DNA of 1,745 nucleotides from Naegleria gruberi (lineage: Eukaryota). A model generated the notes under the pieces. It saw only the letters and a program-made list of their open reading frames with translations. It was not told the origin of the DNA and made no database searches. The stretch lies in the NCBI GenBank assembly GCA_000004985.1, contig GG739333.1; one strand, given 5' to 3'. The translations under genes and the position numbers were made by a program. Each line of letters opens with the position of its first letter. The first letter of the stretch is position 1. Shown here one piece after another: positions 3 through 1,745 of the stretch.

Positions 3-266
3 TCCATCTGCACAAGGTAGAACAAAAGATTCACCCTTCCAGAAACCTTTCTTGTTATCTGCATAACAAGTACATTGTTCAAGCTCATTACAATAACCAT
101 TTCCACTACAAGTAGTTGAGGCATTACATTTAACCAAACTATTACACATAGCTCCTAAATAAGGAGAAACACATGCTGAACAATCTGCACCAGTCCAATA
201 ACCTTTGCCAGCTATGTTATCACAGACACAAATATTCAAATCTGTACATTGACCATGTCCAGAACA
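3..266 (-). other. Divergent cysteine-rich modules on the C-terminal side of the regular array: 8-Cys EGF-like units resembling laminin-type EGF
   Basis: Translation (minus, 266 down to 3): CSGHGQCTDLNICVCDNIAGKGYWTGADCSACVSPYLGAMCNSLVKCNASTTCSGNGYCNELEQCTCYADNKKGFWKGESFVLPCADG. The unit is 156 bp rather than 117. The 'C-x-C-x6-G-Y-W-x-G-x-x-C-x-x-C' pattern, with an extra C-x-x-C after the G..G..C, is the laminin-EGF hallmark rather than the tenascin one. The 117-bp periodicity is lost here. Confidence 0.55.
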
Positions 267-1745
267 AACAGATGAAGCATTGGAAGAAATGCCACCACAA
301 GTGAATTGAGCACAATGACTTCCGTAATATCCAGATTGACAAGAACAATGATCGAAAAAATCACATCTACCTTTTCCAGAACAAGCTGATGCATTTGTTG
401 AGACAATTCCAAAACAATTAAACTGGCTACAATCATATCCATTATATCCAGCTGAACAGGAGCAATTATTTGGGGAGATGCAACCACCATGTCCATAACA
501 TGCTGACGCATTTGTTGAGGCAGTTCCATAACAATCAAATTGACTACAATCATTCCCGTAGTATCCATCTAAACAGGAGCAATTATTTGGTGAGATGCAA
601 CCACCATGTCCATAACATGCTGAACCACTTGTTGAGGCAGTTCCATAACAATCAAATTGACTACAATCATTTCCGTAGTATCCATCTAAACAAGAACAAT
701 TATTTGGTGAGATGCAACCACCATGTCCAGAACATGCTGATGCATTTGTGGAGGCAGTTTCGTAACAATCAAATTCACTACAATCATTTCCATAATATCC
801 AGCTAAGCATGAACAGTTATTTGGTGAGACACAACGACCATAACTAGAACAAACTGAACCACTTGTTGAGGCAGCTCCAAAACAATCAAACTCAGCACAG
901 TCATTTCCGTAATGTTCGTTAGAGCATGAGCAATTATTTGGTGAGATGCAATCACCATGTCCAAAACAAACTGAACCACTTGTTGAGGCAGTTCCAAAAC
1001 AATCAAACTCAGCACATTCATTTCCATAGTATCCAGAGGTGCATGAACAATTATTTGGTGCAATACAATAGCCATTTCCAGAGCAAACTGATGAATTACT
1101 TGGTGAAATATCAAAACATTGGAAAGAACTGCAATCTGATCCACTATATCCAGCTAAGCATGAGCAGTTATTTGGTGAGAGACAGGTACCGTGTCCAGAA
1201 CATACTGAACCATTTGTTGAGGCAATTCCATAACAATCAAATTGACTACAATCATTACCATAGTGTTCATTAGAGCATGAGCAATTATTTGGTGAGATAC
1301 ATCTTCCTTGACCAGAGCAAACTGATGAAGAAGTAAATAATGTACCAAAACATTCGTATTCACTACAATTACTACCATAGTATCCATAGGTGCATGAACA
1401 ATTATTTGGAGCAATGCAATTACCATTTCCAGAGCAAACTGATGAATTACTTGGTGAAATATCAAAACATTGGAAAGAACTGCAATCTGATCCACTATAT
1501 CCAGCTAAGCATGAGCAGTTATTTGGTAAGAGACAGGTACCGTGTCCAGAACATACTGAACCATTTGTTGAGGCAATTCCAAAACAATCAAATTGACTAC
1601 AATCATTACCATAGTGTTCATTAGAGCATGAGCAATTATTTGGTGAGATACATCTTCCTTGACCAGAGCAAACTGATGAAGAAGTAAATAATGTACCAAA
1701 ACATTCGTATTCACTGCAATCATTTCCATAATATCCATCTAAACA
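3..1745 (-). CDS. Internal fragment (5' and 3' ends both outside the window) of a large secreted or surface protein made of tandem tenascin-type EGF-like repeats (581 codons, no stop)
   Basis: Seen in sequence: manual translation of the reverse complement with codons on plus triplets starting at positions divisible by 3 gives an uninterrupted frame across the window; no in-frame plus 'tta', 'cta' or 'tca'. Example stretch (minus, from ~734 down): CSGHGGCISPNNCSCLDGYYGNDCSQFDCYGTASTSGSACYGHGGCISPNNCSCLDGYYGNDCSQFDCYGTASTNASACYGHGGC... The 6-Cys spacing C-x5-C-x5-C-x-C-x8-C-x4-C with 'CxCxxG[YF]xGxDC' is the tenascin/EGF_2 signature. Cys codons are held in every unit while several third positions differ (e.g. 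573-581 'acaggagca' vs 690-698 'acaagaaca', both encoding C-S-C), which points to purifying selection on the protein. Confidence 0.85.
267..1670 (-). repeat. Tandem array of 117-bp (39-codon) coding repeats, 12 complete regular units, each one EGF-like module plus linker
   Basis: The first Cys codon of each 'CSGxGxC' sits at plus 1668-1670, 1551-1553, 1434-1436, 1317-1319, 1200-1202, 1083-1085, 966-968, 849-851, 732-734, 615-617, 498-500, 381-383 and 264-266, exactly 117 bp apart. Adjacent units 480-596 and 597-713 differ at about 7 of 117 nt (~94% identity). A partial unit occupies 1671..1745 at the window edge. Confidence 0.9.
1083..1433 (-). repeat. Higher-order 351-bp (3 x 117) repeat, copy 1
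   Basis: Encodes three unit types in order: 'CSGQGRCISPNNCSCSNEHYGNDCSQFDCYGIASTNGSV', 'CSGHGTCLSPNNCSCLAGYSGSDCSSFQCFDISPSNSSV' and 'CSGNGYCIAPNNCSCTSGYYGNECAEFDC...'. Nearly identical to 1434..1745. The 351-bp spacing also shows in the ORF track: minus out-of-frame ORFs 803..1144, 1154..1495 and 1505..1738 have stops 351 bp apart. Confidence 0.85.
1434..1745 (-). repeat. Higher-order 351-bp repeat, copy 2 (cut by the window edge)
   Basis: Aligns base-for-base with 1083..1394 apart from a few substitutions (e.g. 1179 'gagagac' vs 1527 'aagagac'; 1230 'ccataacaatc' vs 1581 'ccaaaacaatc'). The two copies diverge in the last ~35 bp (1365-1394 vs 1716-1745). There copy 2 resembles the 'CLDGYYGNDC' unit type seen at 663-692. 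Confidence 0.85.

Follow-up and report, generated by a model that had tools for sequence, protein, structure and literature searches.

A Change of EGF Module Class at the End of a Repeat Stalk Encoded by a Naegleria gruberi Contig

Introduction

The 1,745-nucleotide stretch of contig GG739333.1 examined here (Naegleria gruberi, GenBank assembly GCA_000004985.1; hereafter "the window") encodes a long array of epidermal growth factor (EGF)-like repeats, and the question raised by this locus is whether the array simply runs on to the low-coordinate end or gives way there to modules of another kind. A first-pass annotation made from the letters alone had proposed the latter, placing at about position 383 a switch from six-cysteine tenascin-type units to eight-cysteine, laminin-type-like units with a G-[YF]-W-x-G motif. 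In its account, this switch probably marked the boundary between a repetitive stalk and a distinct C-terminal cysteine-rich region.

We find that the class of module does change, that the true point of this change is position 299, and that the "laminin-like" appearance of the unit beyond it is that of a recurrent eight-cysteine EGF variant of protists rather than of a true laminin domain. With a probability that we put at roughly three in four, the window comes from the interior of a gene whose product is an extracellular glycoprotein with EGF repeats, from an N. gruberi-like amoeboflagellate (Heterolobosea), in which two eight-cysteine modules cap the C-terminal end of the stalk. The arrangement of a stalk followed by such modules is real but ordinary, since public databases already contain uncharacterised Naegleria proteins built in this way. 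An anonymous 1.7-kb fragment would thereby be placed within a Naegleria-type EGF-repeat surface-protein gene, a result of small practical value that opens no long-standing question.

The Six-Cysteine Stalk and Its Last Unit

Translation of the minus strand gives one open frame of 581 codons, without a stop and open at both ends of the window, whereas the five remaining frames contain 9–73 stops; G+C content is about 38% overall and 17% at third codon positions. Because coding is on the minus strand, moving to lower coordinates means moving toward the C terminus of the protein, as had been assumed in the first-pass annotation, and the three peptide strings quoted there are all present in this frame at the places given for them. 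Tandem Repeats Finder delimits a 117-bp array at 375–1737 with 11.6 copies and a 351-bp super-period. Tabulation of the gaps between the 88 cysteines of the protein resolves one partial unit and then twelve complete units of exactly 39 amino acids (aa), with a spacing per unit of C-x10-C-x5-C-x5-C-x-C-x8-C-x4, the last of which ends at aa 482 (window 300). The stalk itself (417–1745, minus strand) comprises the partial unit and the first 11 complete six-cysteine EGF units of 39 aa (117 bp), marked by an I/V-S/A-P-N-N motif and with nucleotide identities to the 117-bp consensus of 0.77–0.89.

Among Pfam families, EGF_2 matches the stalk at E=2e-63 over 14 stretches, with EGF_TEN and EGF_Teneurin matching as well. 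A stalk unit reaches 28.4 bits against EGF_2 (cutoff 22.1) and has the C5-x8-C6 spacing of the teneurin/tenascin type. With the families of that type (PF07974 EGF_2, PF23106 EGF_Teneurin, PF25024 EGF_TEN) the stalk shares a C-x5-C-x5-C-x-C-x8-C core and a G-Y/F-x-G motif; it differs from them in its longer C1–C2 loop (10 residues) and its 39-aa period.

The transition occurs in unit 12 (aa 444–482; window 300–416, minus strand), the last six-cysteine unit, which retains the full 39-aa length and the unchanged cysteine spacing of 10, 5, 5, 1, 8, 4. It scores 27.9 bits against EGF_Teneurin and 25.4 bits against EGF_2, above the cutoff of the latter. Its sequence is nonetheless atypical: DFFDH takes the place of ISPNN, in agreement with the earlier remark on a unit lacking I-S-P-N-N, and nucleotide identity to the consensus is 73%, compared with 77–89% in units 1–11. 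The quoted string CSGKGRCDFFDH begins within this unit, at aa 455 (window 383). Because unit 12 keeps the spacing of the stalk, cysteine spacing changes first at window 299. The break proposed at about 383 was therefore sound as to a change of class and misplaced as to spacing, as position 383 (375 by Tandem Repeats Finder) marks only the onset of sequence divergence.

A Complete Eight-Cysteine Module

Unit 13 (aa 483–534; window 144–299, minus strand) is a complete eight-cysteine module, with 8 cysteines in 52 aa counted from C1 to C8 and a spacing of C-x10-C-x5-C-x5-C-x-C-x13-C-x2-C-x8-C. It is the 52-aa unit with an extra C-x-x-C that had been noticed at the outset. The C5–C6 loop is five residues longer than that of the stalk and contains GYWTG (aa 515–519; window 189–203, minus strand). 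C6-x2-C7 corresponds to C-S-A-C (aa 522–525; window 171–182, minus strand), the sole C-x-x-C in the window, and C8 is aa 534 (window 144–146). The G-[YF]-W-x-G motif occurs twice, as GYWTG and, in the unit that follows, as GFWKG (33–47); over the class of modules described below it takes the form G-[YFH]-W-x-G. In an alignment of 52 such modules, the first glycine of GYWTG (G33) is invariant and the second (G37) is conserved in at least 90%.

Two local hidden Markov models (HMMs) were compared, one representing stalk units 1–11 and the other 51 eight-cysteine modules of other proteins, with the window excluded. Scores against the stalk HMM fall from 84 bits in unit 10 and 77 in unit 11 to 52 in unit 12, 25 (24.6) in unit 13 and 10 in unit 14. 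Against the eight-cysteine HMM, units 10, 11 and 12 of the six-cysteine array score 19.9, 18.8 and 22.3 bits, respectively (range 18.8–22.3), as opposed to 55.3 bits for unit 13 and 34.6 for unit 14. These reciprocal scores assign units 13 and 14 to a module class other than that of the stalk. The switch of class is far beyond chance, and cysteine spacing and the two HMMs agree with the first-pass annotation in placing it at the low-coordinate end.

A different account of the same region would be that the edge of a tandem array is decaying, with its last copies drifting and perhaps pseudogenic, in which case the switch would have no architectural meaning. Nucleotide identity to the consensus does drop stepwise toward the C-terminal end, from 0.85 through 0.73 in unit 12 and 0.52 in unit 13 to 0.38 in unit 14. 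Unit 12 could be viewed simply as a diverged six-cysteine copy, an expected cysteine has been lost in unit 14, and the recent duplications (units 1–3 vs. units 4–6) affect only the inner part of the array. Drift of this kind is, however, hard to reconcile with a unit 13 that fits a conserved eight-cysteine class residue for residue, at 55 bits with an HMM from which it was excluded. The two-module ending is, moreover, conserved in another N. gruberi protein (XP_002679910/D2V8E7, hereafter P0026), and the frame is open throughout the window. We consequently regard edge decay as quite improbable and retain a change of module class at position 299.

The Module Class in Other Protists

The class to which unit 13 belongs carries no name; we define it here from the relatives of the window protein by the spacing C-x(4-11)-C-x5-C-x(5,6)-C-x-C-x13-C-x2-C-x8-C, which unit 13 shows in full and unit 14 only up to C5. 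Loop statistics were taken over 272 related proteins. Of 569 C5–C6 loops with 13 residues, 556 are accompanied by C-x2-C; of 3135 with 8 residues, 2997 are without it. Where C-x2-C is present, the following cysteine is placed exactly 8 residues after it in 765 of 862 cases. The spacing seen most often (n, 5, 5–6, 1, 13, 2, 8) is that of unit 13, whose own values (10, 5, 5, 1, 13, 2, 8) are among the common spacings of 522 modules. C7 and C8 thus almost always occur together, at x8 in the 765 of 862 cases above, an indirect sign that these two cysteines probably pair with each other.

A profile of the two-module region retrieved 1,143 representative proteins at E≤1e-3 among 1.84 billion, and among the 150 matches listed the motif was present in 87 of 145 newly found proteins. 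Some carriers (the P0128–P0272 set) are 2,000–7,000 aa long, with up to 22 modules per protein. Named sources include Entosiphon sulcatum (Euglenozoa; one protein of 6,064 aa) and Papus ankaliazontas (Cercozoa), and the class-carrying proteins from named sources are all unannotated or "hypothetical." The eight-cysteine unit thus belongs to a distinct class of module that recurs in many proteins of protists.

Searched with Pfam at E≤0.01, the 52 class modules matched EGF_2 (43 modules), EGF_Teneurin (32), EGF_LMN_ATRN (14) and EGF_laminin (11). Single modules score best with generic families (EGF_2, EGF_Teneurin), there is no dedicated model, and no Pfam model attains its gathering cutoff across the whole of C1–C8 in the unit of the window. 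The clean two-state statistics, in which x8 goes without C-x-x-C and x13 with C-x-x-C-x8-C, make a case for building a dedicated profile, which could mark stalk ends in many large unannotated protist surface proteins. Going further, we suggest tentatively that the class may be a discrete and ancient protist EGF subclass, spread over Heterolobosea, Entosiphon and Papus and intermediate between teneurin-type and laminin-type EGF, a proposal that we hold to be possible rather than probable. If true, the class would deserve its own family model and would bear on the origin of laminin-type from ordinary EGF modules.

Likeness to Laminin-Type Domains

Whether units 13 and 14 might be true laminin-type EGF (LE) domains, homologous to the LE family of laminin, netrin and perlecan, turns on several features that point in different directions. 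Unit 13, with its eight cysteines in 52 aa, has the LE complement of eight in about 50–60 residues (~50 aa in the LE domain compared here). Like an LE domain it adds one more loop, on the C-terminal side, to an EGF core, and has G-x2-C6-x2-C7 followed by an aromatic residue four positions past C7. In LE domains, which form tandem rod-like arrays, this loop is closed by C7–C8 and the disulfides connect cysteines 1–3, 2–4, 5–6 and 7–8. The PROSITE signature of LE domains (PS01248) is C-x(1,2)-C-x(5)-G-x(2)-C-x(2)-C-x(3,4)-[FYW]-x(3,15)-C. In its strict form this signature has no match in unit 13 and matches only 5 of the 52 class modules. With x(5) relaxed to x(10), a change that corresponds to the five-residue insertion carrying G-[YFH]-W, it matches 50 of the 52 and fits the second half of unit 13 (C-x-C...G-x2-C-x2-C-x3-Y-x4-C).

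Profile searches give a similar picture. EGF_LMN_ATRN (PF24973) aligns to unit 13 from C2 to C8 and, like EGF_laminin, matches a minority of class modules (14 and 11 of 52, respectively, as given above), but its 13.9 bits on unit 13 are far under the cutoff of 27. EGF_laminin (PF00053, cutoff 21 bits) had no match at E≤10 in the whole protein, in the last 146 aa or in unit 13; the families reported for the whole protein and the last 146 aa were EGF_2, EGF_TEN, EGF_PEAR1L and EGF_Teneurin. When the PDB was searched by sequence with the module profile, the closest entries were stramenopile mastigoneme proteins (9ufe, E=5e-4), with laminin 1tle at only E=0.58.

The N-terminal half of the modules also departs from the LE pattern. 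Where an LE domain begins with C-x-C, unit 13 has the C1-x10-C2 of the stalk and unit 14 has C1-x5-C2, and the C5–C6 loop has 13 residues in unit 13 vs. 8 in an LE domain. Since unit 13 stays under the family HMM cutoffs, does not match the signature in its strict form and lacks the C-x-C start, we speak of likeness to the laminin type, not of family membership, and consider true LE domains unlikely. Of the laminin-type label originally attached to these units, the eight cysteines, the C6-x2-C7-x8-C8 arrangement and the laminin-like design stand, and membership by Pfam, signature and N-terminal start does not.

The only above-threshold Pfam match of unit 13 is EGF_2, the family of the stalk, at 25.3 bits (cutoff 22.1). 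The match covers only C1–C6, and with its 13-residue loop the unit conforms only in part to the teneurin/tenascin type, from which units 13 and 14 differ by the longer C5–C6 loop and the added C7–C8 loop. Assignment to the same EGF family as the stalk, which together with unpaired extra cysteines the first-pass annotation had itself named as the outcome that would speak against its proposal, was accordingly obtained over these six cysteines.

Confident AlphaFold2 models predict EGF hairpins with a longer C5–C6 hairpin and a small hairpin within the C7–C8 loop. For units 12–14 mean confidence (predicted local distance difference test, pLDDT) is 87.9, with values above 90 over units 12–13 and 67 at the anomalous tail of unit 14; unit 13 alone, modeled from the 52-sequence alignment, has a pLDDT of 85.7. 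A strand predicted at 33–36 of the single-module model corresponds to aa 515–518, at GYWTG. In Foldseek searches with the three-unit model, integrin beta, Jagged and Notch arrays came out on top, none at E≤1e-3; the best match of unit 13 had E=0.08, with laminin 1klo at E=2.2. Human TYRP1 (the cysteine-rich EGF-like subdomain of PDB 9ey8 and 5m8l) and the EGF modules of stramenopile tubular mastigonemes (9ufe) gave weak, partial-module matches, and these proteins have no architecture or biology in common with the window protein, only the EGF superfamily fold. The fold searches did not tell laminin-type folds from those of other EGF modules. The models are compatible with an LE-like shape and support only a generic EGF-superfamily fold.

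Integrin-beta-type I-EGF modules, which likewise have eight cysteines (with a C1–C5 bridge), were also considered as an identity for these units. EGF_integrin gives 7.2 bits (E=6.8) against a cutoff of 27 and touches only 3 of the 52 class members; the cysteine spacing is unlike that of I-EGF, and the first six cysteines align fully to EGF_2. This identity was rejected as highly improbable, and the units are best described as members of the protist class defined above.

The Second Eight-Cysteine Unit and Its Anomalous Tail

Unit 14 occupies aa 540–581 (window 3–128), and the last of the three quoted strings, which runs from CSGNGYC to CADG, corresponds to aa 546–581 (window 3–110). Its conforming part (aa 540–573; window 27–128, minus strand) has C-x5-C-x5-C-x5-C-x-C and a loop with GFWKG. 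This part amounts to the N-terminal two thirds of a second eight-cysteine module and is colinear with residues 407–438 of P0026. The alignment to the eight-cysteine HMM ends at S573, just ahead of the expected C6. Outside the alignment lies the tail FVLPCADG (aa 574–581; window 3–26, minus strand), in which F574 (TTT) stands at the expected C6 (TGT) and which is without C-x2-C. The residues ESFVLPCADG come after GFWKG, giving a gap of x17 after C5, with one extra residue preceding the next cysteine, and the window ends 8 residues past the expected C6 position. The description of this third unit as an eight-cysteine module accordingly holds for C1–C5 and GFWKG; with F574 in place of the expected C6, eight cysteines are not demonstrated. 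Because that cysteine is lacking, unit 14 may be degenerate, interrupted or mis-read.

Three explanations of the tail were tried and found unconvincing. The segment GTGAATCTTTTGTTCTACCTTGTGCAG (window 34 down to 8) resembles a 27-nucleotide GT...AG segment with a pyrimidine tract. Its removal as an intron would restore a 13-residue loop, but would turn the conserved glycine of G-F-W-x-G into aspartate, and the segment is far shorter than the ~70-nucleotide introns of a related gene (L001). A frameshift fares no better, since the +1-shifted frame has C-x3-C in place of the C-x2-C of the class. A single TGT>TTT change would account for the lost C6, but not for the extra residue.

The related EGF-repeat gene just mentioned, on a 1744-bp Logan contig (SRR22388313), has two GT...AG introns of ~65–75 nucleotides inside EGF units, at 1440–1516 and 1633–1696, one in a C5–C6 loop and one in a C3–C4 loop. 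The automatic gene call on this contig (P0002) translated through both introns as protein.

Sequence continuing the fragment was sought in two ways: the exact 26-mer of window 75–100 had no match in metagenome, viral or prokaryote genome collections, and a protein-guided scan of metagenome contigs for a continuation gave 79 pattern matches, none of them a relative.

Relatives and the Region Beyond the Stalk

With the full-length protein as query, the best relatives came from N. gruberi, N. lovaniensis, N. fowleri, Acrasis kona and Willaertia magna, together with unnamed metagenome proteins. The last 166 aa alone gave 2 weak matches, so the search needed the whole protein and an alignment of the modules. 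No database protein is identical to that of the window. N. gruberi XP_002670926 (P0014) contains a 53-aa exact match and is 78% identical over 156 aa. Its 448-aa gene model looks chimeric, with ~155 aa of EGF stalk between methyltransferase-like segments (Pfam PF01170, PF08241).

The most informative relative for the end of the stalk is P0026, residues 311–438 of which are colinear with units 12–14 at 37% identity over 128 aa. It shares with the window a stalk of ~39-aa six-cysteine units and the signature C-F/Y-G...V-C-S-G-x-G-x-C...N-C-x-C. There then follow, as in the window, an atypical six-cysteine unit, the counterpart of unit 12, and two eight-cysteine modules of the same spacing joined by a five-residue linker (NSLVK at window 129–143, minus strand; TVIEK in P0026). 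In P0026, however, the second module is complete (GYWNGTNCNTCNDGFYGEDC, vs. GFWKGESFVLPCADG in the window). At only ~37–40% identity, P0026 is a paralogue-level relative of the window protein and represents another gene.

Its stalk ends in the two eight-cysteine modules and passes directly into a non-EGF region. The same order of stalk and then eight-cysteine modules is found in four further proteins, which with P0026 are all uncharacterised heterolobosean EGF-repeat proteins. In P0047, three modules are followed by a REJ match (24.6 bits, cutoff 25) and by an above-threshold K319L-like PKD domain. P0045 has a single module and then a Ser/Thr-rich linker, a hydrophobic helix and a short tail. 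In P0226, five modules precede a region that by eye resembles the post-EGF region of P0026, and in P0028 seven modules close the stalk. P0026 and P0047 are also homologous in their post-EGF regions (E=2e-12). The boundary at the end of the stalk that had been postulated for the window thus has a colinear counterpart in P0026 and parallels in the other four. The "distinct C-terminal cysteine-rich region" marks a stalk end as supposed, yet in the closest relatives it is only 1–7 modules long.

These comparisons suggest how the protein might be built. At least 12 six-cysteine EGF units of 39 aa would form a disulfide-stiffened stalk, with N-x-S/T sequons in most C1–C2 loops, and two modules of a different, discrete class would cap it on the C-terminal side. 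The class can be pictured as an EGF module with two changes, a C5–C6 hairpin longer by five residues and carrying G-[YFH]-W-x-G, and a fourth loop, C6-x2-C7-x8-C8. This putative fourth disulfide loop would follow the design principle of laminin-type EGF, but on an N-terminal half that is stalk-like. In the closest relatives the modules separate the stalk from what comes next, either a REJ/PKD-like domain or a Ser/Thr-rich linker with a transmembrane helix. By analogy, the module most likely forms no functional region of its own but acts structurally, as a rigid adaptor where the stalk ends. The window protein would be extracellular, and, again by analogy, a REJ/PKD-like region or a membrane anchor probably lies past position 1.

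Several observations weigh against this interpretation. Unit 14 is without the expected C6. The cap role draws on relatives of only ~37–40% identity, and the end of the protein lies beyond the window. Among the relatives with at least four six-cysteine and one to four eight-cysteine modules (n=40), the eight-cysteine modules are at the C-terminal end only in 21, at the N-terminal end only in 2 and interspersed in 17. With 17 of 40 interspersed, a terminal position is a tendency, not a rule; terminal capping is common, and true of the closest relatives, but not universal. Lastly, we found no experimental data on any member in the literature, nor any paper describing the eight-cysteine modules of Naegleria. 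"Tenascin family" proteins are listed in the predicted secretome of N. fowleri, with their role unknown (PMC6831594).

Some relatives carry further domains, including kinase, NHL, RCC1 or Kelch domains. Downstream of the EGF stalk, at ~650–820, P0026 has a sub-threshold match to an adenylate/guanylate cyclase catalytic domain (20.0 bits, cutoff 21.9), which hints that some EGF-stalk proteins may be receptor-type cyclases.

Sequons, Duplications and Spurious Frames in the Array

The 581 aa of the window protein contain 21 N-x-S/T sequons. The C1–C2 loop (e.g., at aa 61, 100, 334, 412, 451, 489 and 541) carries NAS, NGS or NSS in 9 units, both eight-cysteine units among them, and an N-C-S sequon sits within the P-N-N-C-S-C motif. 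This density would be consistent with a heavily N-glycosylated extracellular stalk.

Within the stalk, a 351-bp block of three units has been freshly duplicated (window 1002–1703, minus strand; units 1–6). DNA identity is 100% between units 1 and 4, 98.3% between units 2 and 5 and 87.2% between units 3 and 6, vs. 71–83% for the remaining pairs of units i and i+3. The near-identical repeats of units 1–6 could also reflect, or cause, assembly collapse. Open reading frames of 110–125 aa that are off-frame or on the opposite strand (e.g., 470–847, plus strand; 803–1144, minus strand; 926–1273, plus strand) are periodic artefacts of the 117-bp array, not genes.

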